Shown: in pieces, positions 6,780 to 62,131 of the stretch | How the letters are laid out: each line of letters begins with the position of its first letter | How positions within the stretch are numbered: the stretch's first letter is position 1 | From: an uncultured Chlorobiaceae bacterium | GTDB taxonomy: Bacteria > Bacteroidota > Ignavibacteria > UBA10030 > SZUA-254 | Length of the DNA stretch: 64,000 nucleotides | Reading direction: 5' to 3' | Assembly (NCBI GenBank): GCA_964512655.1 | Contig: CAZEJT010000003.1 | Coordinates: 183,719-247,718, forward strand | The notes under the pieces: generated by a model | What the model was told of the DNA's origin: nothing | Databases searched by the model: none | The model's input: only the letters and a program-made list of their open reading frames with translations | Translations under genes and position numbers: made by a program

Positions 6780-6781
6780 TA

Positions 6782-7972
6782 GTGCGCTTTTCCCGCCGCA
6801 CCGGGTGGCCGCGGCGGCCCAACAAGCTGGCCGCCCTCCTTGAAGAGCGACGCAAGAGCGGCAAACCGGTTTACGATCTCACAGTTTCAAACCCAACCGA
6901 GGTCGGGATAGGTTATCCGGAAATCGACCTTGCCGCTTCCCTTTCCGATCCAAGAGTCCTTCGCTACGAGCCCGACCCGCGCGGCCTCCTGAGCGCCCGC
7001 GAAACAATCTCCGAGTACTACGATTCTACCTGGAATATCACCGCGGATCCATCATCGATCTTCCTCACCTCAAGCACAAGCGAGGCGTATTCGATACTTT
7101 TCAAGCTCCTCTGTGATCCGGGAGAGGAGATTCTCATTCCCCGGCCTACCTACCCTCTTTTTGACTCCCTGGCACGTCTTAGCGATGTGACGCTTGGCGG
7201 ATATCGTCTCGAGTACGATGATGTGTGGCGAGTCGATCTTGACTCTGTGGAGGCCGCGATCGGGAAATCGACACGGGCTGTTGTCATCGTCAATCCCCAC
7301 AACCCCACCGGCATGTTCCTGAAACAGGATGAGTACCGCGCGATCAAAGAGATGTGCGCGCAGCATTCGATCCCGATTATCACGGATGAAGTTTTTTTGG
7401 AGTTTCCGCTTCACGGCGGGAACTCCCGGATTTCAACGGCGGGTGAACAGGATATCCTGTCGTTCACTCTAAACGGAATTTCGAAGATGGCCGGACTCCC
7501 CCAGCTTAAATTGGGATGGATCGTCGTGGGAGGTCCGCCGGCCGATCGTACAGAAGCCGCGGGCCGGCTTGAGATCGTTTCCGATACATTTCTCTCCGTG
7601 AACACTCCCGTTCAGATCGCGCTTCCGGAGATCATGGAGGCGGGCGACAATATCCGTGAGAACCTGCTCGCCCGGCTCAGGTCCAACTATGGCGCCATGC
7701 TCGCCGAGGTTCCATCAGGATCCGCTTGTTCTGTTCTCCAGTGTGAGGGAGGATGGTATGGGATTATCCGGGTGCCGAACGTGAAATCGGACGAGGAGTG
7801 GGCGGTGCTGCTCCTCGAGGAGACTGGTTTCTACCTGTTCCCTGGTTATTTCTTCGATTTCGAGACGGAGGGCTATCTGGTGGTGAGTCTACTCGTGAAG
7901 GAGGAGGTTTTTCGCAAGGGCATAACGGCACTTGTTGATTGCGTCGAATCGATGGACCCCGACACTGCATGA
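6782..7972 (+). CDS. PLP-dependent aminotransferase, class I/II fold
   Basis: N-terminal FSRRTG…LDLT.SNPT motif and VIVNPHNPTG core. GTG start 2 nt after the typA stop; no in-frame ATG before the conserved N-terminus. Confidence 0.8.
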   Translation: MRFSRRTGWPRRPNKLAALLEERRKSGKPVYDLTVSNPTEVGIGYPEIDLAASLSDPRVLRYEPDPRGLLSARETISEYYDSTWNITADPSSIFLTSSTSEAYSILFKLLCDPGEEILIPRPTYPLFDSLARLSDVTLGGYRLEYDDVWRVDLDSVEAAIGKSTRAVVIVNPHNPTGMFLKQDEYRAIKEMCAQHSIPIITDEVFLEFPLHGGNSRISTAGEQDILSFTLNGISKMAGLPQLKLGWIVVGGPPADRTEAAGRLEIVSDTFLSVNTPVQIALPEIMEAGDNIRENLLARLRSNYGAMLAEVPSGSACSVLQCEGGWYGIIRVPNVKSDEEWAVLLLEETGFYLFPGYFFDFETEGYLVVSLLVKEEVFRKGITALVDCVESMDPDTA

Positions 7973-48268: not shown

Positions 48269-48350
48269 GTCCCGCATCAGGCGTTGTTATTCAAGCCCTA
48301 AATTGCTATATTTTTTCATGCGGGCCACTCAGGAGAAGCATGTGGGGAAG

Positions 48351-50063
48351 ATGCGTATGAGGACCGTGGTCGCGGCATTCGCTGCGCTGATCATCGCCGG
48401 CTGCAGCGGGTCGGGCAATATGGCGCAGCAGGAAAAACCCGCAGGCACCCTCCCTCTCAAAAGCCACACCGACGACGAACTCGCCCTGCGCCGCTTCATC
48501 GAAGGATCGCTTCTCGACCAGACCGGCAAGTACGCGGAGGCGATACTCCAGTACCAGGAGGCGCTCCACGAGAAGCAGGACCCCGCCATCTATCACGCCA
48601 TCGCCAAAGATTATTCCATTCTTGACAACCATACGCGCGCGATAGAAGCGGGCCGCGAAGCGGTTCGCCTCGCACCGAAGAACCGGACCTATCATGAAAC
48701 CCTCGCCAACGTTTACGTCAACGCCCTCGACCTCGACGGGGCGATCAAGGAGTACGAGGAGGTCATCAGACTCGACTCATCCTACCTCGAGGCATGGCTC
48801 AGTCTGGGAAGGCTTCTCCAGGTCCAGAAACCCGAGAAAGCGATAAAGACCTACCGGGAGGTGATCGACCGCTTCGGTCCCGATAACGACGCCTACTTCC
48901 AGATGAGCCAGATTTACGGCTCGATGAGGGATTTCCGCCGGCAAGCGGAGGCGTACAAAGGGATGCTCTCGATTGATCCTGCAAATTTCGAGGTGAAGAA
49001 GGCCCTGGGCGACGCCTACCTACGCAGCGACAGCGTGGACGCGGCGCTCCGGATCTATAGCGAGCTTGTCGAGGCCCATCCCGAGGACCTCGACGTCCGC
49101 GCCGCGATCGCGCACGGATATCTGACGAAGCAGGATTACGACGCCGCGGCCAAGCAGTTCGAGGAAGTCCTCCGCAAGGATTCCCTCACAGTAGACGACC
49201 AGATCAAGTTCGGCACGGTCTTTCTCAACTTCATCCAGAAGGACTCGGGCGTAGCCCCATACGCGATCAAGCTCTTCAACCGGATCCGGAACTCCCACCC
49301 GGACGATTGGCGCCCGTACTGGTACCTTGGCATGATCGAAAATATTTCGAAGGACGACTCCGCGGCGCTTCTGCACTTTAAGAAGGTGAAGGATCTCGCC
49401 GGGTGGAATGCCGACGGATGGGTGGGCATCGCCTCCATCTATTACGACAGGGGCCAGTTCGACGATGCAATTCAGGTCCTCAATGAGGCGAAGAAGTCCG
49501 TTCCCGAAGAGTTTCGGATTCATTTCCTTCTCGGGGTTTCGTATCAGAGAAAGCGCGAACTGCCGGAGGCCGCGGCGTCGCTCGAAAAGGCGGTCCAGCT
49601 CGACGGGAAGAGAGTCGACGCATTGAGCGCACTGGCCCTTGTGTACGACGAGATGAAGCGGCCGGAAGAATCGGACAGCATCTACGAACGCGCGCTTCGG
49701 ATCGATCCGAAGAACCATCTCCTCCTGAACAATTACGCCTACAGTCTCTGCGAGCGGGGGCTTCAGCTGCAAAGATCTCTGAAGATGTCGAAGGAAGCGG
49801 TCGAGCAGCAGCCGGTCAATCAATCGTACCTCGACACCTACGGCTGGATCTATTACCGGATGCAGCAGTACGATGAGGCGGAGAGGTATATCCGCAAGGC
49901 GGTCGAGCTCGGCAGCACAAGCGCGGTTATTCTCGAACACCTCGGCGACGTCTACTTCAAGGAGTCGAAGAAGGAGAAAGCGCTGGAGTACTGGCAGAAG
50001 GCGCTGCTGATCGACGCAACGAACACCGCGCTCAAGGAGAAGATTCAACGGGGGAGTCTGTGA
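48351..50063 (+). CDS. TPR-repeat lipoprotein
   Basis: ATG at 48351 gives MRMRTVVAAFAALIIAGCSG (lipobox). Multiple 34-aa TPR repeats (…AIKTYREVI…, …ALRIYSELV…, …AIQVLNEA…). Confidence 0.8.
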   Translation: MRMRTVVAAFAALIIAGCSGSGNMAQQEKPAGTLPLKSHTDDELALRRFIEGSLLDQTGKYAEAILQYQEALHEKQDPAIYHAIAKDYSILDNHTRAIEAGREAVRLAPKNRTYHETLANVYVNALDLDGAIKEYEEVIRLDSSYLEAWLSLGRLLQVQKPEKAIKTYREVIDRFGPDNDAYFQMSQIYGSMRDFRRQAEAYKGMLSIDPANFEVKKALGDAYLRSDSVDAALRIYSELVEAHPEDLDVRAAIAHGYLTKQDYDAAAKQFEEVLRKDSLTVDDQIKFGTVFLNFIQKDSGVAPYAIKLFNRIRNSHPDDWRPYWYLGMIENISKDDSAALLHFKKVKDLAGWNADGWVGIASIYYDRGQFDDAIQVLNEAKKSVPEEFRIHFLLGVSYQRKRELPEAAASLEKAVQLDGKRVDALSALALVYDEMKRPEESDSIYERALRIDPKNHLLLNNYAYSLCERGLQLQRSLKMSKEAVEQQPVNQSYLDTYGWIYYRMQQYDEAERYIRKAVELGSTSAVILEHLGDVYFKESKKEKALEYWQKALLIDATNTALKEKIQRGSL

Positions 50064-50830
50064 GATGCCGGCGCCGGGACATTATTCCTGCCCTTCTGCT
50101 CGCGGTTCTCTCCGGCTGCGGACCATCGACAAAGAGTGTCAGGGAGGCCCCCCTCCCGGTCGGGGAGGTTTTGCGCCGGGTCCGTGAGCGGAACGAAAAA
50201 GTGAGGACGCTCAAAGGAGACGGCACAATCACCATCGAATCGCCCGAGGGATCCACCTCGGGTTTTTTCACCGCGCGCCTGAAGAAGCCCGATTCCCTTC
50301 TGGTGGAGTTCAAAGGACCCTTCGGGATCCACGTGGGAACGCTCATGCTCTCGCGCGGGCAATTCACGTTCTTCAATAAGATGGAAAACAGGGCGATCGT
50401 CGGGGCACCCGACGGGAGGACCCTGCAATCGATGTTCCGATTGAAGATGGAATTCGATGAAGTTCTGAACGTGTTCACGGGCGAATTCCCCGGCGCCGGG
50501 GCGGGGGACTCTCTCATGGCATTCTCCACATATGACGGGCGTTATGATATCAGCTACACGAGTGGCGAAACCGTCAAGGAGTACAATGTCGACGGGGAAG
50601 CATTTGTCGTAAGGGGGTATAAGGTCGTCGACACATCCGGGACTCCGACTCTCACCGCCGTAGCCGACAGAGTAGACGATTCACCGCCGGCGCCGGTGCC
50701 AAAGTTCCTCCGGGTGATCTTCCCCCGGGAACACCGGAGCATTACGATTGCGTATTCCGGCATCGAGCTCAACAGGCCGGTCGACTGCTCTCTTTCCCTC
50801 CCGGAACGCGTCGAGATCATCAACCGCTGA
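50060..50830 (+). CDS. DUF4292-like (LolB-fold) outer-membrane lipoprotein
   Basis: Lipobox AVLSGC; 256 aa. The start overlaps the TPR gene stop (ATGA coupling). A conserved TPR–DUF4292–M23 arrangement is known in Bacteroidota. Confidence 0.5.
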   Translation: MRCRRRDIIPALLLAVLSGCGPSTKSVREAPLPVGEVLRRVRERNEKVRTLKGDGTITIESPEGSTSGFFTARLKKPDSLLVEFKGPFGIHVGTLMLSRGQFTFFNKMENRAIVGAPDGRTLQSMFRLKMEFDEVLNVFTGEFPGAGAGDSLMAFSTYDGRYDISYTSGETVKEYNVDGEAFVVRGYKVVDTSGTPTLTAVADRVDDSPPAPVPKFLRVIFPREHRSITIAYSGIELNRPVDCSLSLPERVEIINR

Positions 50831-52047
50831 TGAGCGCCCGCCCCCTCCCGGCGTTCTTCCTCATCCTTGCGTGCATCCTTGCTTCTCCTTCCTTCGCCCA
50901 GCGGAGCGAGCTAAAGCAAAAAAGATCCGACCTCGAGAAGCTGAGGAAAGAGATCGATCAGTACGAGCAGAAGATCAAGGAGAAGGAGCGCAAGGAGCAC
51001 GCGACTCTTGAACTCCTCGATACGTACGACAGGCAGGCTACCCTCCTGCGGCGGCTGATCGCGAGGCTTCACGATGACGAGAAATCCCTCTCGCAGGATA
51101 TCGACCGCGCCCGGTCTCAGATCGGAAACCTCAGCGACCGCGTCGGGTACCTGAAGGGAGAATACGCCCAATACGTGACAGCCGCCTACAAGTTCGGACG
51201 CCTGTACGATCTCGAACTCCTCCTCAGCTCCGGATCGCTTAATACCATGCTGATCAGGTCCGAGTATCTGAAGCGTTTCTCCGAGCAGAGGCGCGAAGAC
51301 ATCGACAGCATCTCCGACCGGAAGTCGGCTCTTGAGCTTCAACGGGCAAGATTGCAGGAACAGCTTTCTGCCCGCAAGCAATTGATTTCGGAGAAAGGGC
51401 GGGAAGAGGAGAAGCTTGCCGTGCGCGCCAGGAAGCGAAAAGTCCTCCTCGCGGAGATCAGGAAAGACAAGCGTAACTTCAGACGCGAGATCAATCGAAA
51501 GGTCGACGACGCGAAGAAACTGGAAAACCTGATCAGCGGACTGATCGAGAAAGAGCGGGCCCGCAAGGATAAGTCCCCCCGCGATGAAACTACTCCGCCG
51601 GGGCCCGGCACTGCCGCCCCGGGGACGGGATTCGACCTGAAGCGGGGCCGCCTCCCCTGGCCGGTTACGCAGGGTAGGATCGTGGGGCGGTTCGGCACGC
51701 AGGAGAACCCGGTGCTTCATACGGTAACCCAGAATACCGGGATCGACATCGGGGTCTCGGCCGGAACACCCGTTGCCGCCGTCGCCTCCGGAGAGGTTTC
51801 AACGATCTGGTGGCTCCCCTCATTTGGAAACCTCGTAATCCTGAATCACCGCAACGGATTCCGGAGCGTGTACTCTCACCTCTCGGAGATTTCTGTCGGC
51901 GAGGGAGACAACCTCAATGAAGGAGATCAGATCGGGAAGAGCGGCGAAGCCCTCTCGGGGCCGCTCCTGCATTTCGAGATCTGGAAGGACCGCGAGAAGC
52001 AGGACCCGCTCCAGTGGCTCAGGCCTCAGGGTTTGACCAGGCGGTGA
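50830..52047 (+). CDS. M23 family metallopeptidase with N-terminal coiled coil (EnvC-like)
   Basis: Signal peptide; ~250 aa of coiled coil; C-terminal M23 motifs GIDIGVSAGTPV (HxxxD-equivalent region), NHRNGFRSVYSHLS, and LHFEIW. Confidence 0.85.
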   Translation: MSARPLPAFFLILACILASPSFAQRSELKQKRSDLEKLRKEIDQYEQKIKEKERKEHATLELLDTYDRQATLLRRLIARLHDDEKSLSQDIDRARSQIGNLSDRVGYLKGEYAQYVTAAYKFGRLYDLELLLSSGSLNTMLIRSEYLKRFSEQRREDIDSISDRKSALELQRARLQEQLSARKQLISEKGREEEKLAVRARKRKVLLAEIRKDKRNFRREINRKVDDAKKLENLISGLIEKERARKDKSPRDETTPPGPGTAAPGTGFDLKRGRLPWPVTQGRIVGRFGTQENPVLHTVTQNTGIDIGVSAGTPVAAVASGEVSTIWWLPSFGNLVILNHRNGFRSVYSHLSEISVGEGDNLNEGDQIGKSGEALSGPLLHFEIWKDREKQDPLQWLRPQGLTRR

Positions 52048-52056
52048 CCCTGCGCT

Positions 52057-54735
52057 ATGATCCGGTCTAATCCGAAACGTCTTCTTCTGGGTTTCGGCGT
52101 TCTGGCCGCCGCAATCCTCCTCACGCACCTTCTCTCCGGCACATTCGGCGAGCTCGAGCGGAGCGTGACCTCCGCGAAATATCATGTCAGGGGTGAATCG
52201 CAGCTCGACTCCTCGATTGTGATCCTCTATCTTTCCGGAGACGACATCGCATCGCTCGGCGGCATCCCATTGAAGCGAAGTTACTATGCGCTCATCCTGG
52301 ATGTCCTTCATCAGCTGGGCGCGAAGGCCGTGGGCGTCGACGTAGCGTTTACCGAGCCGGATCTGGAACACCCGGAATACGATGAGATTCTTGCCTCAGT
52401 CGTTCAGAAGTCGGGGAACGTAGTCGTTGGCGGTTATTTCCGCACTCTTCATGCGGGGGACTCAAAGGAATCGGATTCATCCGGCCTCCCCGCGGGGTTC
52501 ACATACCGGTCCAACCTGCCCATGCCGTTCCCGCGGGGAGGACGACTCGAACGTCCATTCCCGCAACTTCTCAACAGCGCCGCGGGGTTCGGCCACACGA
52601 CACTCTTTGAGCCGGGAGAGATTCCCCTCTTCGTACGGACGGGCGAAGGATTCGTTCCCGCGCTGTCGCTCGAGCTCCTGAGAGTTGCCCTCGGAGCCGG
52701 CAGATCCGACGTGACGATTGATGCCGGAGAAGCGGTGATTGGTTCCGGCAACTCCGCCGTGTCGATTCCTCTCTCCGGGACCGGAAGCATCATCCCGAAC
52801 TTTGCAGGCGGGAACAACTCGCTCAATCTCATCTCGACGGTTGATTTTCTGAAGGCGTATGATGAGGGCGAGGGACACGGAACCGGCCATGAGGAGCTCG
52901 AGAGGGTGAAAGGGAAAATCGTTTTGCTCGGCATCATCGCGGGCGGAAGAAGCTCGTTTATCTCTACTCCCTTTTCTTCCCAATTCCCCTCGATCGGTCT
53001 TCATGCCACCGTCATTCACGATGCCCTGCACGGCTCGTTTCTTCGAACACTCCCGCACTGGCTGAGCTATCTTCTCGCCTTCATCATCGGCTGTGTGTGC
53101 ATCCTGTTCATGCACATGGGCCGCCAACTCTATGGGATCCTCGGAGTAGTTTCCCTCCTCGTCCTCCTTGTCGCGGCGTCGCTCGTCGGATTTTCGGCAG
53201 GCTCATTGATTATCCCGATTGTGCCGTCACTGTTTTGTGCTCTCTGTGTAACGGCAGCCCTCGTCCTGTACCGCCACAAGCAGGTTGAGGATGAAAAAGC
53301 CCGGGTTGACCGGCTGCTGCATGACAAGGAATCCCGGCTGAAGGAACTTGAGCTGGAGCTCACCGGAGTGCGGCAGCGTCATGAAGAAACCCGCAGTGCG
53401 AATCTCGTTGCCGAGATCGATTCGTACCAGCGGGAAATCGCGAGACTCCGAACGCACGCCGGCGACCTCCAGCCGCACTCCGAACCTCCTGCGGCGGGGG
53501 AAGCTGCGCAGAACTTCGCAGGGATCGTTTACAATCCGGCGGGACCGATGGAGGAAATCATAATATTCCTCAAGAAGATCTCCGCCAACGATGCGAATGT
53601 GCTCGTCCTGGGAGAGAGCGGAACGGGTAAGGAGCTCGTGGCAAGGGCCATTCACGCACACTCACCGCGCTCAGAGAAGCCGTTCGTCGCGGTGAACTGC
53701 GGGGCGCTGACAGAGACCCTGCTGGAGAGCGAGCTCTTCGGTCACGAGCGGGGAGCGTTTACCGGCGCCCTCAAGGAGAGGCAGGGCCGCTTTGAGCTCG
53801 CGGACGGCGGAACGATCTTTCTCGACGAGATTGCCGAGACGAGCGAGGCGTTTCAGGTGAAACTCCTCCGGGTCCTCCAGGATGGCTCGTTCGAAAGAGT
53901 CGGAGGGACAAGGACAATGAAGGTGAACGTCCGCGTCATCGCGGCAACGAACCGGGACCTCCGCCGGGCCGTGTCCGACAAACATTTCAGGGAAGATCTC
54001 TATTATCGCCTCAACGTCTTTTCAATCAACCTTCCGCCGCTGAGAGAACGGGAAAAGGATATTCCCCTGCTGATCGGCTATTTCATGGAGCGGGAAGCCC
54101 CGGGAATGAATTGCAGCACCGTTGTGGTCGAAGTGCTTTGCCGGCACAAATGGAAAGGGAACGTCAGGGAGCTTCAAAGCGTGATCAAGCGGGCGGCGAT
54201 TCTCGCGGCTTCCGAGAACCGTCAGATGATTCGCATAAAGGATCTGCCCGAGGAGATCGCATCGACCGCCGCTTCAGCCGTGGACATCGAACGACAGATC
54301 ATCGATTCGCTTCGGGGAAAGCAGTTCTCAAGAAATGCCATATCCGAAACGGCTGATGAGCTGGGAGGATTCAACCGCGGTACGGTCACAGAATACCTGC
54401 GCGGCTTCTCATTCAAGACATTTGCGGAGCTGCGGTGGGATATTCCCGCGACGGTGGCGGCTATCTCAGCATCCGATGAGCCCGGCGTCCGAGGGCGCGT
54501 CGAGAAAAAGCTCATCGAGTACCTGGGAAATGCCGTGGATGCGGCCGACCGTTCCCTCTCGGCAGAGGCCATCATTGAGGCCTCCCGGTCGAAGTATAAG
54601 AACCTCCCTCAGAGATACCATCCCTTCCTTGACGAGATCCTCCGTGCATACTCGCGGGGGGAGTGGTCTGCCGGAACGGGCATTTCATCCCCGAATCAGA
54701 CGCCAATCCGCCGGATCGGGGACGACCCGGCATAA
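52057..54735 (+). CDS. CHASE2-sensor sigma54-dependent transcriptional activator (membrane-bound one-component bEBP)
   Basis: N-terminal TM and ~300-aa CHASE2-like extracytoplasmic domain (VGVDVAFTEPD…), then three TMs and a coiled coil. AAA+ sigma54-interaction domain (GESGTGKELVARAIH, GAFTGA, ESELFGHE, arginine finger region) and a C-terminal HTH-like segment. No receiver domain. Confidence 0.85.
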   Translation: MIRSNPKRLLLGFGVLAAAILLTHLLSGTFGELERSVTSAKYHVRGESQLDSSIVILYLSGDDIASLGGIPLKRSYYALILDVLHQLGAKAVGVDVAFTEPDLEHPEYDEILASVVQKSGNVVVGGYFRTLHAGDSKESDSSGLPAGFTYRSNLPMPFPRGGRLERPFPQLLNSAAGFGHTTLFEPGEIPLFVRTGEGFVPALSLELLRVALGAGRSDVTIDAGEAVIGSGNSAVSIPLSGTGSIIPNFAGGNNSLNLISTVDFLKAYDEGEGHGTGHEELERVKGKIVLLGIIAGGRSSFISTPFSSQFPSIGLHATVIHDALHGSFLRTLPHWLSYLLAFIIGCVCILFMHMGRQLYGILGVVSLLVLLVAASLVGFSAGSLIIPIVPSLFCALCVTAALVLYRHKQVEDEKARVDRLLHDKESRLKELELELTGVRQRHEETRSANLVAEIDSYQREIARLRTHAGDLQPHSEPPAAGEAAQNFAGIVYNPAGPMEEIIIFLKKISANDANVLVLGESGTGKELVARAIHAHSPRSEKPFVAVNCGALTETLLESELFGHERGAFTGALKERQGRFELADGGTIFLDEIAETSEAFQVKLLRVLQDGSFERVGGTRTMKVNVRVIAATNRDLRRAVSDKHFREDLYYRLNVFSINLPPLREREKDIPLLIGYFMEREAPGMNCSTVVVEVLCRHKWKGNVRELQSVIKRAAILAASENRQMIRIKDLPEEIASTAASAVDIERQIIDSLRGKQFSRNAISETADELGGFNRGTVTEYLRGFSFKTFAELRWDIPATVAAISASDEPGVRGRVEKKLIEYLGNAVDAADRSLSAEAIIEASRSKYKNLPQRYHPFLDEILRAYSRGEWSAGTGISSPNQTPIRRIGDDPA

Positions 54736-54838
54736 GCGGGGAAAATTCCCGCACGATCCGGCTAGTTCATCCGGGTAAATCCGGCTGCAATTCCGCATTT
54801 TCCTTCCAAATTCGCCTCCATCCTCCATACGAGGCCTC

Positions 54839-54854
54839 TGGCACGATGGTTGAT
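54839..54854 (+). promoter_or_regulatory. Candidate sigma54 (-24/-12) promoter
   Basis: TGGCACG-atgg-TTGAT: a perfect -24 element with correct 4-nt spacing, and a -12 reading TTGA instead of the TTGC consensus. It lies about 175 bp upstream of the 55031 lipoprotein gene and directly downstream of the bEBP gene. Confidence 0.45.
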
Positions 54855-55030
54855 GTTGAACTGTCCCAGAAGATGCCCGCCACAATAGGGAAGTGGCAGC
54901 ATCTGATGGATGGTAGATCTTGTCCCGCTGCTCTTGTTGTATCCATAATCACGTGCGGGCGTGTGGGAAAGAGCGGCGGGACAATTAATAAGACCGCACA
55001 GAGGTCACTCATATTAGAGGAGATACGGTT

Positions 55031-56059
55031 ATGAAGTTACTCCATCTTTCCATGCTGCTGATGGCCCTGGCGATCGGGCTGGCCGGTTGCGCAAAGGAAA
55101 ACGTGGTCGGCCCCCCGACGCTCACTGATCAGGCGGCGCTTCAGGCTGAGGTGACCACGATCGATTCGGTCGCGCAGTTTTCCACATCGGATGAATTGAC
55201 CATCGATGATAACGGGTTAAGGAATCCGGAGTATGACGGCCTGGCGAAGATCGACGCCGCCGAGCTTTCACATCTGGGGAGGATCTTCGGAGATTCACTG
55301 TACCCCGTCCGATGGGGGCGTCATATTTTCTGGAACCAGGTAACCCGGCACTATGATGTCACGATCGCGCCAGGTGACTCAAGCGCTCTCGTCACGATCA
55401 CGAAGATCCTGCCCGGCGAATTCTGGGTAGGGCTCGGATTCAAGACAATCGACACGGTTGTCATCGACACAGTCATTAAGAAGCCCTTCGAGGAAGTCGT
55501 GAAGCGAAAGGTCCGGTTTATCCGCGTGGCGCGCACCGACAATCCGCTGAGGAACTGGGTGCCGGTTGCGATAACCATGGTCCAGGGTAAGACGCGTCCG
55601 GATACGCTCAACATGTTCTCCATCACCTCGCTTGAAATTGAAGCGGTGGGACATTTCGATACCACCTATACGGATCCTCTGCAGACGTGGTTCCGACTCG
55701 GACTCTTCCGCGGCTCGATACCGCGCTTCAGGGTGGGGGATACCGTGAAGGTCACGCTCACGGTGCACAGCGCCAATGATTCGGCTGAGATAGCACACCT
55801 GCGGTACGGAATCGCGGGCGACGGAGCCGAGCGGCGCAGAACCCTGATGAAACTCATCTCGATCACCGGAAGCGCCGGGAATTTCGACAGAGTGTATCAG
55901 AGAGTGTTCGTCAGCAGGCTGCCGAACTTCCTGCCCACAGGCATCCTCGCGGTCCGGTTCAACGCGATCGCCGATGTCATATCGTACGGCTCGATCTACG
56001 TCAACGACGATCCGTTTACGAATGAGTTCTGGGGCACGCCGTACATCGTCGTACGGTAA
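55031..56059 (+). CDS. Hypothetical lipoprotein
   Basis: Lipobox IGLAGC; 342 aa; first gene after the candidate sigma54 promoter. Confidence 0.55.
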   Translation: MKLLHLSMLLMALAIGLAGCAKENVVGPPTLTDQAALQAEVTTIDSVAQFSTSDELTIDDNGLRNPEYDGLAKIDAAELSHLGRIFGDSLYPVRWGRHIFWNQVTRHYDVTIAPGDSSALVTITKILPGEFWVGLGFKTIDTVVIDTVIKKPFEEVVKRKVRFIRVARTDNPLRNWVPVAITMVQGKTRPDTLNMFSITSLEIEAVGHFDTTYTDPLQTWFRLGLFRGSIPRFRVGDTVKVTLTVHSANDSAEIAHLRYGIAGDGAERRRTLMKLISITGSAGNFDRVYQRVFVSRLPNFLPTGILAVRFNAIADVISYGSIYVNDDPFTNEFWGTPYIVVR

Positions 56060-56164
56060 CGTAAAGGCCTGACTGTTTCCCCCGTCTGCAAGCGGCCGAA
56101 GTCATTGCAGGCGGGGGAAGCTTTTATTAGATTGGGTTCGATGATACGAGCGCACAACCATACG

Positions 56165-57070
56165 ATGAGATTGATCCGGCTCCTGAGTCTGGGGGCCGTG
56201 CTGTTCCTGGCGGCAGGCTGCGAAAAACCCGGCCCCGTCAATCTCGTAGACGACTCGGCACGCAAGGCGGACCTTGTGATACTCGGCAACTCCAGTGCGG
56301 GAGTCGGAGCGTTCGGGACCGATGATATCGACTCGGCCCACCTTTTCCCTCCCGTTCAGGGCAAGGTGTTCGGGCAGCTGATAGTCTCGGGATCAATCTT
56401 CGACAGCAAGACCGAGCATCATGAAGGGTCCCTCACACGCGCGATATTCTTCGATCGGTCTGCGCCGGTCATTCTCGGCGGCGATACGCTCGCGTACAAG
56501 ACTCTCGATGCCGGAGTGGTCAGTATCGATGCAATACCGCTCCTCCCGCGCGAGAAGAGATTGCAAATCCCCCGATTGGCGCTGGATACCCTTCTCGGGA
56601 TCCAGTACTTCCTGGTCAGCGTGGACGGCGTCGGCGGCAGGGGATTTCAATTTGTCGGGAGCCACGGATACCGGTGGACCGGCACGGGCGTCGGTTCAAT
56701 CGCTCCATTCACAATTGACGTGCAATCTCCGCCGCTTCTGCACGTTGATTCGCCCGGGCCGGATCAGACCGTATCTCTCTCCCACAACCTCACGGTGCGA
56801 TGGACCGGAGGCGGATCCTTTGTCGATATCCTGATCAGCGACGTCCAATCGGGCGTACGGGCCCGTCCGCTTGTCCGGCTGCGGCTCAGCACGAATCGCG
56901 GCGAGACTGTCATTCCCACGGCGGTTCTCCAGATTCTGCGTGGCCGTCCGGCCGCCCTGTTCACATTTACCTCCGGGGCGAGGTCGATTGTGCAGGTCGG
57001 GGGTTATCCGGATGACGTGGTGGCAACAGCCGCCTCGACACACAACCTTCTCCTGACACTCGGTCCCTAG
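56165..57070 (+). CDS. Hypothetical lipoprotein
   Basis: ATG at 56165 gives MRLIRLLSLGAVLFLAAGC (lipobox). The tracked ORF begins at 56105. Confidence 0.5.
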   Translation: MRLIRLLSLGAVLFLAAGCEKPGPVNLVDDSARKADLVILGNSSAGVGAFGTDDIDSAHLFPPVQGKVFGQLIVSGSIFDSKTEHHEGSLTRAIFFDRSAPVILGGDTLAYKTLDAGVVSIDAIPLLPREKRLQIPRLALDTLLGIQYFLVSVDGVGGRGFQFVGSHGYRWTGTGVGSIAPFTIDVQSPPLLHVDSPGPDQTVSLSHNLTVRWTGGGSFVDILISDVQSGVRARPLVRLRLSTNRGETVIPTAVLQILRGRPAALFTFTSGARSIVQVGGYPDDVVATAASTHNLLLTLGP

Positions 57071-57078
57071 CGGCGACT

Positions 57079-59109
57079 ATGAGCTTATTGCCTCCTACCC
57101 GCATAGGATTGGCATGCATGTGGATGATCATGGCAGCTTCAACCTCCTATACGCAGCATTTGAGCTCGGCGAGGGCGATCGGCTTGGGCGGGTACACCGC
57201 GCTCGCGGGCGACCTCAACGCGCTGGACTGGAACCCGGCGGGACTCACTGGGCTGAACGATTGGCAAATCGAGGCCGGGAATTTTGTCTCCCCGACATTG
57301 AGCGATCATACGATCACGGCCCAGGTAGTGGGAGTCGGGAAGCGCTTTGTGGATATCTATGCCGCCGGATTCCGCGTCTCGCCGGGGATTACACTGGATT
57401 TCACTGTTCCCTCCACTTTTTCATTCGAAGATTCTTCAAGGTCTCTGACGACGCGGTTCGACAAGAAAATCAGTTACAGCGAGCCCTATGCGGTTGGCTT
57501 TGCGGTCAGGGGGCCCGAGGACTTTGCGTTCGGCCTCAGCGTCCATCGCTTTGAGAACCAGGTGAGCGACACCAGGTTCAGTGTCGATGCCAACTCCGTC
57601 ATCCAATCAACGCCGGTGGAATATTCAGCGGGTATGTTTCTCGCGGATCTCGGTATTTCGTGGTCTCCGCGACCGGGGTATCGGTTCGGGGCTGTTGCCA
57701 AAAACCTCGTGCAGGTAATCGATTCCCGTCTACCCGAAGAGGAAAGTCAATTTGATCTGACCCTGCCGCGCTACGTGCGGTTCGGGGCGGGATACAGCCT
57801 CATGGAAGGGCTCCTCGTGAGCGCTGACGGAGATACGAAAAAACAATTTCGCGTAGGCGGAGAGTGGAGCGGACCGTGGCGCCTTTTACTCCGTGGTGGA
57901 TTATATGCCGATGGTTCATCCACTCTCTCAGCCGACGCGTTGAGTCTTGGAATCGGGGGCGCGTATGGCGCGGTCTCGGTCGATGCGAGCTACCTGAAGT
58001 TTTTCTCGGAGACGTACCGGAAGGGCTCAGCGGGGATCAGCGCATACCAGGAGGCGGATATTGCGAGTCTGGAGTATAACCGGTTCACCGGAGACCGCGT
58101 TTCGCTCACAGCGCAGATCAGCTTCGGCGGCATCCGTCCGATTCCGGTGCACATCGACCGTGTCGACATGAGCGGCGACTTCTTTCCGGCGCTTCGCCCC
58201 CTGTACGCATACCGTCCCATCGGGCGTGCCATCGTCCGAAACACGTCCACAAAACCGATCGAGGTGAAACTGGGATTCTTCATCGACAAGTTGATGGATG
58301 CACCGACCGAGACGAAGCCCGAGAGAATCCCCCCGGGGGATACGATGGGAGTCCCATTGTATGCGGTCTTCAATGATTCTCTCCGCGCCGCCCGGTCTAT
58401 GAGCGTCCGGAATGGCGACGTCACGATCAAAGCCATCGACGAGGATGGCTCATATGAGGACCGGTATCAGAGCCGCGTCCTGATACACGCGCGGAACGAT
58501 TGGAACGGAGACGTCTCGGTACTGAGATACTTCGTTACGCCCGATGACTCGGATGTCATTCACTTCACGAGATCGTATCTGAACCACTACAAGGTTCTGC
58601 TCGACACCGTGCCGGGCGAACTTGCCGCCGTTGCGAGGGCCAGGATTATCTTTGACGAATTTGCCGAACAGCTCCTCTATGTGAACGATCCTAAGAAAAG
58701 CGAGGATTTTGTTCAGTACCCATCGGAGACGATCAGGATCCGGGGGGGAGATTGCGACGATATGAGCGTGTGCTATGCGGCTCTGCTGGCAAGCATGGGG
58801 ATTTCGACCGCGTTTGTGGATGTTGTTCCCCCCGGTCACCCCGAAGATTCGCATATCTATCTGATGTTCGACAGCGGAGTCAACGCGGGGAGCGCCTCGC
58901 TGCTGGCCGGCAATCCCAAGCGGTACGTCATCCGGGGAAACGACCATGGCACCGAGTCTGTATGGATTCCGATAGAGACCACGGCAATTACGAAGGGGTT
59001 CGAAGAAGCGTGGAAGGCCGGCGCGCAGGAATATTTCAACGATGTCGAGGTGAATCTCGGCATGGTGAGGGGTTGGGTGCGCGTGGTAGATCTTGGAATA
59101 GTCGATTAA
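57079..59109 (+). CDS. Secreted protein with beta-barrel-like N-terminal region and C-terminal transglutaminase-like cysteine-protease domain
   Basis: Signal peptide. N-terminal ~300 aa of alternating-hydrophobic beta-strand character (…SLGIGGAYGAVSVDASYLKF). C-terminus IRGGDCDDMSVCYAALLASMGISTAFVDVVPPGHPEDSHIYLMFD fits the transglutaminase-like Cys…His…Asp core. Confidence 0.55.
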   Translation: MSLLPPTRIGLACMWMIMAASTSYTQHLSSARAIGLGGYTALAGDLNALDWNPAGLTGLNDWQIEAGNFVSPTLSDHTITAQVVGVGKRFVDIYAAGFRVSPGITLDFTVPSTFSFEDSSRSLTTRFDKKISYSEPYAVGFAVRGPEDFAFGLSVHRFENQVSDTRFSVDANSVIQSTPVEYSAGMFLADLGISWSPRPGYRFGAVAKNLVQVIDSRLPEEESQFDLTLPRYVRFGAGYSLMEGLLVSADGDTKKQFRVGGEWSGPWRLLLRGGLYADGSSTLSADALSLGIGGAYGAVSVDASYLKFFSETYRKGSAGISAYQEADIASLEYNRFTGDRVSLTAQISFGGIRPIPVHIDRVDMSGDFFPALRPLYAYRPIGRAIVRNTSTKPIEVKLGFFIDKLMDAPTETKPERIPPGDTMGVPLYAVFNDSLRAARSMSVRNGDVTIKAIDEDGSYEDRYQSRVLIHARNDWNGDVSVLRYFVTPDDSDVIHFTRSYLNHYKVLLDTVPGELAAVARARIIFDEFAEQLLYVNDPKKSEDFVQYPSETIRIRGGDCDDMSVCYAALLASMGISTAFVDVVPPGHPEDSHIYLMFDSGVNAGSASLLAGNPKRYVIRGNDHGTESVWIPIETTAITKGFEEAWKAGAQEYFNDVEVNLGMVRGWVRVVDLGIVD

Positions 59110-59130
59110 TACAGAAAGGCGGGCTTAGGT

Positions 59131-59838
59131 ATGAAACGCGAGACAATAAGATTGATGAGATGCCTCATGCTCCTGTCGGCGCTGGCGGCGCCGGGGCTGC
59201 GGGCTGAGATCAGGGTGATGGCGCTGAAAGGGCATGTGTACGTCCGGCACAACGTCCAGGAACAGTGGGTCCCCGTTGCGCGGGGAGACGTTCTCAAGCC
59301 CGAAGACTCGATGAAATCCGACGAGAAGTCCTCATCGACGCTTCTTGTGGACGGCAAAACGACGGTCGTCCTTCCCGAGATGGCGATTATCGATCTGTCG
59401 GATTTGCGGTCGCTCACGCGGGAAGACCTGCTCCTGAAGCTTGCGATGGAGCGCATTCGGAGTGTTCCGGAGAAGGGGAGCGGTGACGAGCTCAACATGC
59501 CGAGAACTACAATTATCCACGGGCCCGATGTTACTCAGCGCCACATCTCTGCGGGAACCGATCCGCAGATTGGGCTGATGCAGATGAAGGGAACCGAAGT
59601 TCTGTTCGGCAGCGGGTTTTACGAAACGGGCGTGCTCAAGGCGAAGGGATTATTCAGGATCCATCCTGAGCTCGCAATGCGCATGGACGACCGGCTCATG
59701 GTTGCGAAAGCCCTTGAGACGTTAAAGCTGAAAGGAGAGGCGCTGGAAGAGTATGTCCAGCTTCGCTCCGAGAAGCTGACCGATGATCAGAGAGATTTCG
59801 TAGTACAGAAGATCGGAGAGTTGAAGGGCTCCCGCTAA
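59131..59838 (+). CDS. Hypothetical secreted protein
   Basis: Signal peptide MRCLMLLSALAAPGLRAE; 235 aa; last gene of the co-directional cluster. Confidence 0.5.
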   Translation: MKRETIRLMRCLMLLSALAAPGLRAEIRVMALKGHVYVRHNVQEQWVPVARGDVLKPEDSMKSDEKSSSTLLVDGKTTVVLPEMAIIDLSDLRSLTREDLLLKLAMERIRSVPEKGSGDELNMPRTTIIHGPDVTQRHISAGTDPQIGLMQMKGTEVLFGSGFYETGVLKAKGLFRIHPELAMRMDDRLMVAKALETLKLKGEALEEYVQLRSEKLTDDQRDFVVQKIGELKGSR

Positions 59839-60051: not shown

Positions 60052-60753
60052 CTATCTTCCCACCAGCAACCTGTCCGCAAGCGGTCTCGGCAAACCCGCC
60101 TTCCTGATTCGCTCTGCGGACTCCTCCACGTCGTACTCCGCCCGAATATTTTCGTACGTGGCCGCCCCGGTATCCAGTATCCCCATACTCAGCCGCGGGT
60201 CGTTGTCGCGCGGCTGACCGACGCTCCCCACGTTGATGATAAATTTCTTCCCCGCCGCGTACTCCTCCGTTCGCCCGTCGTCACAATATATGGCCGGCAC
60301 GTGCGAATGTCCGAGGAAACAAACCTGCTCCTCAAAATAATAGAAATTGAACTGGGCGTCGGCGGGAGTAAGGACATAATGCCACTCATTGGGTTCGAAG
60401 GGCGATGAGTGCACGAAGAGCGCGCCCTCCAGCTCGAGCGTGTACGGGAGCCGGCCGACAAACTCTGCGTGTTCGGGGGTCAACTGTTTGTTGGTCCACT
60501 CCGCCGCCACCCTCGCGAGCGGGTTGAAGTATTCCGTTCTTGAGAGATCGATTGCGGCCTCATCGTGATTTCCCAACAGGATGTGTTCCGTGGTGTTCCG
60601 GACGAGTTCGATGCACTCATTGGGGTTCGCGCCGTAGCCGATGAGATCGCCGAGGCATACGACCGCGTCCACGTGTTGTGCGGAGACGATCTCCAGCGCC
60701 TTCTCCAGAGCGCCGAGATTCGAGTGGATGTCTGAGATGATAGCGAGGCGCAA
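60052..60753 (-). CDS. Metallophosphoesterase (YfcE/MJ0936-like)
   Basis: Motifs ISDIHSN, CLGDLIGYG and GNHDEA (MPP family), with a C-terminal GHSHVP. Confidence 0.8.
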   Translation of the reverse strand: MRLAIISDIHSNLGALEKALEIVSAQHVDAVVCLGDLIGYGANPNECIELVRNTTEHILLGNHDEAAIDLSRTEYFNPLARVAAEWTNKQLTPEHAEFVGRLPYTLELEGALFVHSSPFEPNEWHYVLTPADAQFNFYYFEEQVCFLGHSHVPAIYCDDGRTEEYAAGKKFIINVGSVGQPRDNDPRLSMGILDTGAATYENIRAEYDVEESAERIRKAGLPRPLADRLLVGR

Positions 60754-60760
60754 TCCGGCG

Positions 60761-62131
60761 CTACGTTTTCTGCTGTTTCTTTTTCGCGGCCGGGAAGAGG
60801 ATGTTATTGAGGATCAATCGATAACCCGGTGAATTCTTGTGCAGGCTCAGATCCGTGGGTTGGTCGCCCACCGCGTGTTGGTAATCCTCGGGATCGTGAC
60901 CTCCGTAAAATGTCCAGGTTCCGCGGCCGTAATTGCCGTGGATGTACCGGACTTCCTCCGTGCCTTCCTTCTCCGCGAGAATAGTGACGTTCTTTTTGAT
61001 GAGGCTCTTCTTGAAATTGGTGGTTTGCCCCAGAAACCCTTTGATGATGTTGGCGTGGTCCTGCGTCAGCATCGTGGGAACAGGATCGTACTTCGCCGAG
61101 AATTCAAAGAGCGTGAAATAGTCGGTCTCCTGATTCGGAGGCGGCAGCATGTCGCTCGGCGGAATGTCGATGTCTGAATACTCGTACCGCAGGGGGTTCA
61201 TCTCGAGTTTGAAGTTTTCAAATGCGAGGCATTTCGAGTAGTCGAGCTTTTTCTGGGCATCCGCATCGGGAGGATCGCCGTCGTACATGACATCGCAGAT
61301 GTCGGTATTCTGGGCCGCAAGGGCGATGTCGTATGTGTCGGTGGCGGAGCACATCGCGAACAGAAATCCCCCGGCCGCAATGTATTCCTTGATCTTCCTC
61401 GCCACGGCCTTCTTTACCTCCGAGACCTTCTTAAACCCCAGCTCCTTCGCTCTCTTTTCATAGAGCACCTGCTGCTCCACATACCAAGGCTGGGTGGAAT
61501 AGTTCGCGTAAAACTTGCCGTACTGGCCCGTGAAGTCCTCGTGATGGAGATGAATCCAGTCGTAGTTGAGGAGTTTGTCCTGAAGAACTTCGGGGTCCCA
61601 CACCTTGTCGTACGGGATTTCCGCGTACTCCATCACGAGCGTGACGGCATCGTCCCAGGGAAGGGTGTTGGGAGTGACATAGACGGCGATCTTCGGCGCT
61701 TTCTCCAGCCGCACCGCATCCATATTGTTGTTTTCGTTCTGCACCTCGGAATAAATCGCGCTGGCCTGCGCTCCGCCTATTTCTTCGAACACCACACCGC
61801 GAATCCTGCATTCCTGGGCAACCGTGGCAACGCCGTCCATCATGAAGGAGCCGCCGCGGTAATTCAGGAGCCAATCGACTTCGATGTTTTTCGTGAGCGC
61901 CCAATACGCGATGCCGTATGCCTTCAGATGGTCCGTCTGTTTGAGGTCCATCGGGACCAGTATCTTCTGCGCGAATGCGAGAGATGTCGCGAGGATGAGG
62001 CAGAGAATGGCGGTCGCTGCGATCACCGGAACCTGCCTGAGAACTCCGGCTGTCCCCGGATTTCGTTTGCTTTCCGGGCCACGCCGGCTGAAGCCGGCGC
62101 CTGCAACTCCCTCACACACATCGAACATCAT
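60761..62131 (-). CDS. Hypothetical secreted or membrane-anchored protein (456 aa)
   Basis: N-terminal hydrophobic segment ATAILCLILATSLAFAQ. No firm motif; GGFLFAMCSAT could be a class-I glutamine-amidotransferase-like nucleophile elbow. The start overlaps the upstream TPR gene stop. Confidence 0.45.
   Translation of the reverse strand: MMFDVCEGVAGAGFSRRGPESKRNPGTAGVLRQVPVIAATAILCLILATSLAFAQKILVPMDLKQTDHLKAYGIAYWALTKNIEVDWLLNYRGGSFMMDGVATVAQECRIRGVVFEEIGGAQASAIYSEVQNENNNMDAVRLEKAPKIAVYVTPNTLPWDDAVTLVMEYAEIPYDKVWDPEVLQDKLLNYDWIHLHHEDFTGQYGKFYANYSTQPWYVEQQVLYEKRAKELGFKKVSEVKKAVARKIKEYIAAGGFLFAMCSATDTYDIALAAQNTDICDVMYDGDPPDADAQKKLDYSKCLAFENFKLEMNPLRYEYSDIDIPPSDMLPPPNQETDYFTLFEFSAKYDPVPTMLTQDHANIIKGFLGQTTNFKKSLIKKNVTILAEKEGTEEVRYIHGNYGRGTWTFYGGHDPEDYQHAVGDQPTDLSLHKNSPGYRLILNNILFPAAKKKQQKT

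Follow-up and report, generated by a model that had tools for sequence, protein, structure and literature searches.

Bacterial enhancer-binding proteins (bEBPs) such as NtrC1 and DctD carry a helical linker that keeps their AAA+ domain as an inactive dimer. CHASE2 is a widespread sensor domain whose signals are described as unknown (PMC5192318), and CHASE2 receptors have been tied to barrel proteins or to proteins with FecR domains or tetratricopeptide repeats (TPRs) in Sinorhizobium meliloti, Campylobacterota and Burkholderia (PMC13001267, PMC5498481, PMC9239204, PMC5192318). The CHASE2 cyclases of S. meliloti require the outer-membrane barrel NsrA for signal perception, the signal arriving at the receptor by way of the barrel (PMC13001267). 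The neighbours of cyaD1, among them the FecR-domain gene smc02177, act downstream as targets of Clr and are dispensable for perception (PMC5498481). In Burkholderia, CHASE2 kinases cluster with a LysM/FecR protein (PMC5192318). Substrates of the protease LapG are laid out as a retention domain, a targeting helix, a turn, a [T/A/P]AAG scissile site and an unstructured segment (PMC13090378). Here we describe a locus that consists of a CHASE2-sigma54 regulator gene followed by four co-directional genes (g1 to g4) in a 64,000-nucleotide stretch of the genome of an uncultured Chlorobiaceae bacterium (GCA_964512655.1, contig CAZEJT010000003.1, positions 183,719 to 247,718). This whole stretch is called the window below. 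All conclusions are based on sequence, on predicted structures (of g3, by AlphaFold2 (AF2), and of g4) and on gene neighbourhoods from uncultured genomes.

The explanation that best covers the data, and that we regard as reasonably likely, is a five-gene envelope-signalling module conserved across Ignavibacteria. Its regulatory wiring, in which the regulator would act through an enhancer and a sigma-54 promoter on g1 to g4, is very probable from the sequence comparisons given below. That the envelope proteins g3 and g4, perhaps also g1 and g2, are partners of the CHASE2 sensor as well as targets of the regulator is put forward tentatively, at somewhat less than even confidence.

The regulator and its predicted control region

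The regulator is organised, from its N-terminus, into a first transmembrane segment (TM1), a periplasmic CHASE2 domain, TM2 to TM4, a helical linker, an AAA+ sigma-54 domain, a divergent helix-turn-helix (HTH) segment and a C-terminal extension. Its CHASE2 domain matched Pfam PF05226 with 116.5 bits (E 2e-33; cutoff 26.3), and aa 498-657 matched Sigma54_activat with 236 bits (cutoff 20.2). The Walker A (GESGTGKE, aa 519-526), GAFTGA (aa 566-571) and Walker B (FLDEI, aa 588-592) motifs were present, and were invariant in an alignment of 19 members of the regulator family. Pfam detected no receiver domain. Hydropathy revealed an N-terminal TM at aa ~8-31 and a block at aa 331-406 that fits three TMs, giving four in total; one TM before and three after the domain is the canonical CHASE2 topology. 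A charged helical stretch (aa ~407-470) lies between the TM block and the AAA+ domain. A preliminary description of this stretch, made from its letters and open reading frames (ORFs), had proposed an 892-aa CHASE2-AAA+ fusion with three TMs and no receiver; Pfam and the GAFTGA motif agree with the fusion, and the number of TMs is to be corrected to four. Architecture, motifs and topology thus support the reading of this protein as a membrane-integral CHASE2-sigma54 one-component activator. Database entries already label it as a sigma-54-interacting regulator. In NCBIfam, the models for NifA, NorR and NtrC were matched solely over their central AAA+ part, with scores under the full-length cutoffs. 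At least 22 further full-length clusters of 34-79% identity share the identical CHASE2 and sigma-54 architecture, and all of them come from Bacteroidota/Ignavibacteria metagenome-assembled genomes (MAGs). This number is a lower bound, because the word-based search saturates on AAA+ proteins.

The C-terminal part of the regulator did not match HTH_8 in Pfam, even at E 10, and the precomputed HTH_8 annotation gave no match in the 22 further clusters. The C-terminal 150 aa are strongly conserved, and a pattern LG..R.T..E..RG stands in register with HTH_8. By hhalign, aa ~753-795 aligned, again in register, with HTH_8 domains from five other bEBPs, although weakly (E 0.038), and residues F757, S758, A766, G770, R774, E779, R782 and G783 are invariant in this segment. 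On these alignments, we interpret the segment as a divergent Fis-type HTH that precedes a conserved extension.

When species-representative genomes were scanned with a g3 alignment, 576 loci were obtained, of which the best 80 were retrieved with their flanks; these 80 all belong to Ignavibacteria, Ignavibacteriota or Melioribacteraceae-type MAGs. Related loci are numbered with the prefix L. The five-gene module was found in at least 65 Ignavibacteria genomes, and among the best 80 loci, nearly all of those with sufficient flank have the regulator upstream of the operon in the same orientation. The neighbourhoods of five regulator homologues contain the same four downstream genes, with wholly different flanks in L004. 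Orthology of the regulator and g1 to g4 was found by BLAST in L002, L004, L005 and L007, L005 having another lipoprotein for g2. The linkage is kept from 37% to 79% regulator identity with varied flanks, and in seven Ignavibacteriaceae-like loci the regulator is located just after g4 on the opposite strand. The idea of a self-contained module with conserved linkage between bEBP and operon, expressed in the preliminary description, therefore receives support from orthologous neighbourhoods in related genomes. Two loci were excluded from the conclusions: L006 (ERZ25039459 contig_114530), whose numerous short fragmentary gene calls suggest a frameshift-rich assembly, and L078, where the regulator is broken into two frames (5386-7696).

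A predicted sigma-54-type promoter, TGGCACGATGGTTGAT, is located 103 nt past the regulator stop codon, and it places the inferred transcription start near 54864. Its -24 element, TGGCAC, is perfect; the -12 element reads TTGA, in which the G is kept and the canonical C is replaced by A. This agrees with the perfect -24 and near-consensus -12 elements that had been pointed out about 100 bp downstream of the regulator. In 66 loci, the counts at the -24 element were T66 G66 G66 C65 A66 C43/T21 and, after N5, those at the -12 element were T61 T64 G58, with A27 G18 C13 T8 at the next position. The -12 element of the family is thus TTGN rather than TTGC, and the -24 element is invariant. In almost all loci, TGGCA[CT]-N5-TTG is the best promoter-like site ahead of g1 on the coding strand, and it mostly lies 70-120 nt from the g1 start codon. 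Of 69 loci, 50 had an exact TGGCAY-N5-TTG on the coding strand no more than 300 nt ahead of g1, compared with eight exact matches in the remaining 2.5 Mb (both strands), or 0.001 per 300 nt, which corresponds to an enrichment of about 700-fold. The single site in the window is not significant alone, because the count of such matches is within chance expectation; its significance comes from the conservation of the motif across related loci relative to the background. A lack of such conservation had been named beforehand as a possible refutation, which failed. The only other exact TGGCAY-N5-TTG in the window, TGGCACCGCAATTGAC at 2798-2813 (+), lies within an ORF of 1587 aa (48-4811) and is probably a chance match.

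A candidate upstream activating sequence (UAS), or enhancer, was recovered by an unbiased search for the best 11-mer direct repeat with a spacing of 19-24 bp in the 66 promoter-aligned loci. A direct repeat with at most two mismatches was present in 56 of them, with a spacing of 21 bp (n = 45) or 22 bp (n = 11) and the consensus aTTCCCGCACTTC, the second copy beginning 72-138 nt ahead of the -24 T. A third element, 19-21 nt upstream of the first copy, was GCCTGA in 27 of 52 loci, with variants at equal offset in most of the others; GCCTGA is the reverse complement of the half-site core. The candidate enhancer consists of two direct TTCCSGCA half-sites 21-22 bp apart and an upstream inverted copy, at a distance of ~95-130 bp from the promoter. 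An inverted-repeat UAS had been suggested for a search between 54736 and 54838. Repeats were indeed found, but they are mainly direct, with one inverted copy, and they start further upstream, so that GCCGGA and half-site 1 fall within the 3′ end of the regulator gene. In many genomes the regulator TGA stop falls within the GCCTGA element, and GCCTGA and its variants hold their fixed offset though the C-terminal residues of the regulator are not conserved, indicating a constraint at the DNA level that overlaps the end of the coding sequence. No further convincing pairs of half-sites were detected in the window; four were found, each with two mismatches per half-site.

The repeats remain in front of the g1 promoter even in loci with a convergent regulator gene, with other genes inserted between the regulator and g1, or with no regulator gene in the ±10 kb flanks. 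Extra DNA between the regulator and the g1 enhancer and promoter amounts to ~1.5 kb in L050 and ~4-6 kb in L052 and L024, and in L043 the regulator ends ~250 nt ahead of g1. An enhancer abutting the regulator gene would help a membrane-tethered activator to reach its target, but this arrangement is not obligatory, since the regulator is several kb distant or unlinked in some genomes. Half-site cores and HTH segments also vary together: the cores CCCGCA/CCGGCA go with the regulator segment FSR..ISETA..LGGLNRGTVAEYLRG, and the cores CATGCA and CAGGCA (or CACGCA) go with FSHSSINETAKELGNVNRTLVAENFRG. This covariation between sequences is suggestive of recognition of the half-sites by the HTH segment.

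The coordinates that had been assigned to all elements were borne out and are collected, with those of the newly delimited features, in the table.

Table. Coordinates of the regulator, its predicted control region and the g1 to g4 operon in the window
Feature	Position	Strand	Basis and details
One-component sigma-54 activator (bEBP), 892 aa	52057..54735	+	Pfam, NCBIfam, hydropathy, motifs, homologue clusters, alignment
CHASE2 periplasmic sensor domain, aa 19-349	52111..53103	+	PF05226, hydropathy
AAA+ sigma-54 interaction domain and lid, aa 498-741	53548..54279	+	PF00158 (E 2.4e-70), PF25601 (AAA_lid_14)
Walker A	53611-53634	+	Motif search of regulator
GAFTGA	53752-53769	+	Motif search of regulator
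Walker B	53818-53832	+	Motif search of regulator
Divergent Fis-type HTH-like segment, FSRNAISETADELGGFNRGTVTEYLRG	54325..54405	+	hhalign, family alignment, UAS covariation
End of conserved C-terminal extension, KYKNLPQRYH	54592-54621	+	Family alignment
Candidate UAS	54710..54753	+	Direct-repeat search, inverted element, 66 loci
Inverted element GCCGGA	54710-54715	+	Part of UAS
Direct half-site 1, ACCCGGCA	54725-54732	+	Overlaps final regulator codons
Direct half-site 2, TTCCCGCA	54746-54753	+	21 bp from half-site 1
Possible extra copy TTCCGCA	54791-54797	+	Window sequence
-24/-12 promoter	54839-54854	+	Motif search and 66-locus conservation
5′-leader hairpin, 12-bp stem, loop ~46 nt	54916..54989	+	Fold z-score, compensatory changes, covariance model
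g1 lipoprotein, 342 aa, lipobox LAGC	55031..56059	+	Lineage-specific family
g2 lipoprotein, 301 aa, lipobox AAGC	56165..57070	+	Conserved N-terminus GC[QDE]KPxP[VT]EL
g3 outer-membrane protein, 676 aa	57079..59109	+	AF2 model, profiles
g3 PorV/FadL-type beta-barrel, aa 22-349	57142-58125	+	AF2 model
g3 Ig-like domain, aa 357-469	58147-58485	+	AF2 model
g3 transglutaminase-fold LapG-like cysteine-protease domain, aa 479-676	58513-59106	+	GGDCDD, H592, WIPxETT
g4 Sec-exported protein, 235 aa, signal peptide	59131..59838	+	Predicted model, family alignment
g4 retention-module-like beta-sandwich, aa 27-92			
g4 helix LLLKLAME, aa 97-110			
g4 disordered linker, aa 112-142			
g4 TPR-like part, aa 145-233			

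On either side of the module lie genes of other kinds. Ahead of the regulator, at 48303-52047 (+), are genes for a TPR protein (586 aa), a DUF4292 protein (256 aa) and a coiled-coil EnvC-like M23 peptidase (405 aa), the stop of the last being 9 nt from the regulator start. The order TPR-DUF4292-M23 is kept in most loci, with the exception of L004 and the Ignavibacteriaceae-like loci. A common transcript of these envelope genes and the regulator is probable. The operon ends at g4, as the next gene is convergent: 60052-63999 (-) encodes a metallophosphoesterase (233 aa), a 456-aa protein without a Pfam match and a TPR protein (623 aa). This convergent cluster adjoins the module in L002 and L007 and does not in L004 and L005; it probably lies outside the module.

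Envelope proteins of the operon and their distant relatives

Four co-directional genes, for two lipoproteins, a predicted barrel-transglutaminase fusion and a secreted protein, had been recognised downstream of the promoter, and the lipoboxes, domains and signal peptide found here agree with these assignments. The leader ahead of g1 is predicted to fold into a hairpin (fold z-score -4.7), in which 7 of the 12 pairs show compensatory changes among 10 sequences and the loop has a conserved GGGC...GTGGGRA. A covariance model detected this hairpin in 11 loci, that is in a subset of lineages, solely in this leader and solely on the + strand: the window, L002 (12912-12983), L007 (6795-6865), L009 (7742-7818), L016 (8915-8994), L010, L014, L015, L017, L019 and L059. 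In L016, g1 is missing and the hairpin stands ahead of g2. No U-run follows the hairpin. Rfam returned nothing at gathering threshold in the whole window, and the leader gave only miRNA-like noise (E >0.3). The hairpin may be a cis-regulatory or stabilising RNA element.

The lipoproteins g1 and g2 had no matches in Pfam or NCBIfam, even at E 10. An exhaustive HMMER search for g1 gave 191 representative clusters, nearly all of 300-340 aa, so that its only relatives are of the same length, and a profile of 32 g1 sequences returned only noise against PDB. In L005, a lipoprotein with DUF4382/CarboxypepD_reg domains is encoded upstream of the g1 homologue, in place of g2, of which no homologue was detected at that locus. 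By these sequence searches, g1 and g2 are lineage-specific lipoproteins without detectable relatives of known function.

The AF2 model of g3 (mean pLDDT, the predicted local distance difference test score, 84.5) comprises a barrel, an Ig-like sandwich and an alpha/beta domain. The N-terminal domain has a barrel fold of FadL/PorV type; it scored 36.5 bits against the NCBIfam PorV model NF033709 (cutoff 90), and a homologue from KSB1 scored 93.7 bits. When a profile of 20 g3 C-terminal sequences was compared with solved proteins, the closest were the LapG orthologues 4u65_E (E 7e-5) and 4fgo_A (E 3e-3), in alignments spanning GGDCDD versus GDCED and the catalytic His. Pfam recognised only Transglut_core in the C-terminal domain, in 20 of 20 members. 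In the g3 family, C559, W629, P631, E633 and T635 do not vary, and H592 is almost invariant; the catalytic triad has the invariant Glu (E633), and not Asp, in its third position. In the model, the Ig-like and protease-like domains come after the last strand of a FadL-type barrel, and they are therefore probably periplasmic. No LapD-like gene was found at the locus. The description of g3 as a fusion of a beta-barrel and a transglutaminase-like domain has thus held, and can be refined to a barrel closest to PorV and a domain closest to LapG.

The product of g4, described before as a secreted protein, does carry a signal peptide, and its predicted model (mean pLDDT 82) allows a refinement to a LapA-type retention-module fold followed by TPRs. 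The N-terminal domain of the model shares the fold of a solved anchoring domain of a type 1 secretion adhesin, and 30 of 34 members of the g4 family matched the NCBIfam model retention_LapA, all below its cutoff (best E 1e-5). The helix LLLxLAME is invariant in the family, and the linker contains a conserved Pro and PRTTxxHG. The order of these elements matches that of published LapG substrates, except for the AAG. A g4 profile had no matches by sequence against PDB. An assignment of g4 as a FecR-domain protein was rejected, PF04773 being absent from 34 family members at E up to 0.1, and g4 is likened to the retention module because both the fold and NCBIfam point there. At 235 aa, with a signal peptide and a TPR end, g4 is not the N-terminus of a giant adhesin.

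The most distant g3 homologues were found outside Ignavibacteria. In L089 (10001-15826; KSB1, GCA_042564565.1), the g3-like gene is followed by genes for a small YbgF-like TPR protein and a CHASE2-guanylate/adenylate cyclase. In L090 (10001-16793; a metagenomic contig), it is followed by genes for a 314-aa protein, a CHASE2 histidine kinase and a REC-sigma54-HTH_8 regulator, the last two forming a two-component equivalent of the window's fused regulator. Three output types of CHASE2 proteins are thus encoded beside g3-family genes: bEBP, cyclase, and histidine kinase with an NtrC-type regulator. The proteins encoded downstream of the distant g3 homologues align weakly with g4 (hhalign E ~0.009). 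A recent origin of the window's regulator by fusion of an L090-type two-component pair was unsupported, as the CHASE2 and AAA+ domains of that pair resemble those of the window no more than generic family members do. The KSB1 g3-like protein has an additional C-terminal TPR; a Rosetta-stone link through this part was also rejected, since it has no detectable similarity to g4.

Two further observations concern these distant relatives. In L089 (1-9975), L090 (5209-9909), L091/L092 and the P0142 and P0143 contigs, the g3-like gene stands immediately behind genes for very large surface proteins, which carry FG-GAP, Reg_prop/PKD or beta-helix repeats together with FlgD_ig or Por_Secre_tail domains. 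This arrangement recalls LapG beside giant adhesins and hints that the g3 family may handle large type IX secreted proteins. The L089 and L090 homologues also gave weak NCBIfam matches (E 5e-5 and 3e-4) to the N-terminal region of the anti-phage protein ProA over their Ig and transglutaminase-like part, which probably reflect the shared transglutaminase-like domain.

Proposed signalling and alternative explanations

In the mechanism that we propose, the C-terminal HTH of the regulator would bind the TTCCSGCA half-sites. A periplasmic signal would pass through TM4 and the helical linker, upon which the AAA+ domains would assemble into an active ring; the linker after TM4 possibly releases an inhibitory dimer, as in NtrC1/DctD. 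The ring would then hydrolyse ATP and remodel the sigma-54 closed complex via a DNA loop, turning on g1 to g4. If the CHASE2 sensor received its input through these envelope proteins, in the outer membrane and the periplasm, the operon would be positively autoregulated, and CHASE2 might, speculatively, read the state of a g3/g4 complex. The view of g3 and g4 as partners of the sensor is suggested by the occurrence of g3 homologues beside CHASE2 sensors with different outputs, which matches the published cases. Most speculatively, and we think this unlikely, g3 might cleave g4 within its linker as a signalling step. Less likely still is the general form of this idea, in which CHASE2 domains would not sense ligands on their own but would be the inner-membrane receiving end of a trans-envelope relay: a barrel-protease of the g3 type would process a retention-module/TPR adaptor, the product or complex would switch the receptor, and in Ignavibacteria the receptor would be wired to a membrane-anchored sigma-54 ATPase.

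Several observations weigh against the module as proposed. At the level of the wiring, the HTH assignment is weak, considering the missing Pfam match and the hhalign E-value, and its covariation with the half-site core rests on essentially one deep lineage split and is therefore confounded by phylogeny. The -12 element is without the canonical C here and has it in only 13 of 66 loci, and the window considered alone contains two TGGCAY-N5-TTG matches versus 0.69 expected, a count reached in 18 of 100 shuffles. No RpoN box was matched by a regular expression applied to all six frames of the window and to 1.5 Mb of related loci. In five Ignavibacteriaceae-like loci, the operon is present together with its promoter and UAS, and no regulator gene lies within 10 kb of it. 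At the level of the envelope proteins, g4 scored only 16.6 bits against retention_LapA (NF033682; cutoff 50) and lacks the [T/A/P]AAG motif of LapG substrates. A CHASE2 neighbour was present in only two of the four distant g3 homologues with informative context, a fifth contig ending at the g3-like gene, and the distant loci L089-L091 yielded no sigma-54 motif. The CHASE2 domains of the distant loci are, moreover, no closer to that of the window than other CHASE2 proteins are. The association is therefore one at the level of families and does not reflect recent common descent.

Two rival explanations concern the control region. TGGCAC-N5-TTGA could be a chance or non-functional match, with g1 to g4 transcribed from a sigma-70-type promoter or as a continuation of the regulator transcript. 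Such an account would fit the number of matches in the window, the -12 element without its canonical GC, a weak sigma-70-like match at 54920-54949 and the result of a simple scan, which found no terminator-like site between the regulator and g1 (or past g4). It is scarcely credible, however, given a -24 element that is invariant at a consistent position and strand in 66 loci, an enrichment of the motif of about 700-fold, and the persistence of the motif where the regulator is not upstream. Alternatively, another protein might bind the repeats, and the regulator might activate sigma-54 polymerase enhancer-free. There are bEBPs without a DNA-binding domain, such as Helicobacter FlgR and Chlamydia CtcC; no HTH family was recognised in the C-terminal 150 aa of the regulator, DNA binding by a membrane-tethered hexamer would be sterically demanding, and the five loci mentioned above have the operon and repeats without a regulator gene within 10 kb. 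Against this, the C-terminal 150 aa are conserved, stand in register with HTH_8 and change with the half-site core, and the repeats are helically phased at a typical enhancer distance, which leaves a separate binding protein very unlikely.

The other two rivals concern the role of the envelope proteins, and we regard each of them as having a limited but real chance of being correct. The CHASE2 domain might sense an unrelated cue, such as a small molecule or envelope stress, g1 to g4 being surface effectors without a role in perception. The wiring of the regulator to the adjacent operon does resemble that of a dedicated regulator with a single target, the cyaD1 neighbours in S. meliloti are Clr targets dispensable for perception (PMC5498481), and the regulator is co-oriented with, and 9 nt behind, the TPR/DUF4292/M23 envelope cluster. 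In the distant loci, however, g3 homologues adjoin a CHASE2 cyclase and a CHASE2 kinase, whose outputs do not act directly on neighbouring DNA, an arrangement more typical of partners; g4, in addition, is built of interaction modules (retention-like domain and TPRs) and has no enzymatic domain. The transglutaminase fold of g3 might also be a cross-linking or binding module that connects the barrel to peptidoglycan or lipoproteins, with g4 as a scaffold like YbgF/CpoB or BamD, so that g3 and g4 would form a structural complex. This is at odds with the nearest solved relatives of the domain, which are two LapG orthologues aligned over GDC[ED]D, the flanking acidic residues and the His. The presence of LapG-like and retention-like domains in adjacent genes further provides two independent pointers to the Lap system.

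Comparison with known systems

Each part of the proposed envelope-signalling module is of a known kind: bEBP, CHASE2, PorV/FadL barrel, LapG-like protease and retention module. In the searchable literature we found no paper on CHASE2 combined with sigma-54 or enhancer-binding proteins, nothing relevant on membrane-integral bEBPs, nothing usable on RpoN in Ignavibacteria, and no description of an integral-membrane CHASE2 bEBP with a defined enhancer. Nor did we find there a LapG-like domain fused to a barrel and accompanied by a small retention-module/TPR protein, or the recurrence of this pair beside CHASE2 receptors.

With bEBPs such as NtrC, DctD and NtrC1, the regulator shares the AAA+ domain with GAFTGA, Walker A/B and lid, the HTH-like C-terminus, a helical linker ahead of the AAA+ domain, and a phased enhancer ~100 bp upstream of a -24/-12 promoter. 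It differs from them in its input, which is a periplasmic CHASE2 domain with four TMs and not a cytoplasmic receiver, GAF, PAS or V4R domain, in an HTH too divergent for HTH_8 with an extension of ~90 aa, and in asymmetric half-sites arranged as a direct repeat. The bEBPs have been studied as soluble ring-forming ATPases; anchoring by four TMs raises the question of how the ring would form and reach a looped promoter. ToxR and CadC likewise combine periplasmic sensing and cytoplasmic DNA binding (predicted for the regulator of the window) in a single inner-membrane polypeptide. These are sigma-70 activators with a winged helix and one TM, whereas the regulator described here must assemble an ATPase ring with four TMs per subunit.

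The genetic tie of a CHASE2 receptor to a barrel and to periplasmic beta-sandwich/TPR proteins is shared with CyaD1/CyaD2/CyaK-NsrA of S. meliloti and with the clusters of Campylobacterota and Burkholderia (PMC13001267, PMC9239204, PMC5192318). In contrast to the CyaD1-NsrA type, the output of the module would be direct sigma-54 activation and not cyclic AMP or phosphotransfer, its barrel is of the PorV/FadL kind and fused to a cysteine-protease-like domain, and a Pfam FecR domain is absent. The module is a compact and conserved candidate set of CHASE2 partners with a direct transcriptional read-out from a delimited enhancer and promoter, which makes CHASE2 signalling testable by a simple reporter. 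Compared with the type IX proteins PorV/PorQ and their partners PorU and PorZ, g3 has only 36.5 bits on the PorV family model and a transglutaminase-fold peptidase-like domain fused at the C-terminus of the barrel. Unlike in the PorU/PorZ arrangement, this domain is probably periplasmic rather than at the surface, and the module contains no other type IX secretion genes.

The Lap system (LapD/LapG/LapA; DvhD/DvhG/DvhA in Desulfovibrio) has in common with the module a GDC[ED]D protease-like domain beside a retention-fold protein with a helix and an unstructured segment, and an inner-membrane receptor with a periplasmic domain encoded at the same locus. The module differs in having no LapD, cyclic di-GMP domain, type 1 secretion system or giant adhesin, and its protease domain is fused to a barrel and not soluble. 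Its g4 protein has a Sec signal peptide, a small TPR end and no [T/A/P]AAG, and its signal would travel inwards, from the outside to transcription, rather than inside-out. The module would be a case in which a LapG-type protease domain and a retention-module fold serve a purpose other than adhesin release. With FecA-FecR-FecI, the module shares the logic of a barrel, a relay spanning the periplasm and an alternative-sigma promoter for the adjacent operon; regulated proteolysis is one step in FecR-type systems. The module has no TonB-dependent transducer, extracytoplasmic function (ECF) sigma factor, anti-sigma factor or Pfam FecR domain, and would use sigma-54 with an ATPase activator instead. 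If the trans-envelope relay were true, it would be a cell-surface signalling system of a new type, analogous to FecA/FecR/ECF but based on sigma-54.

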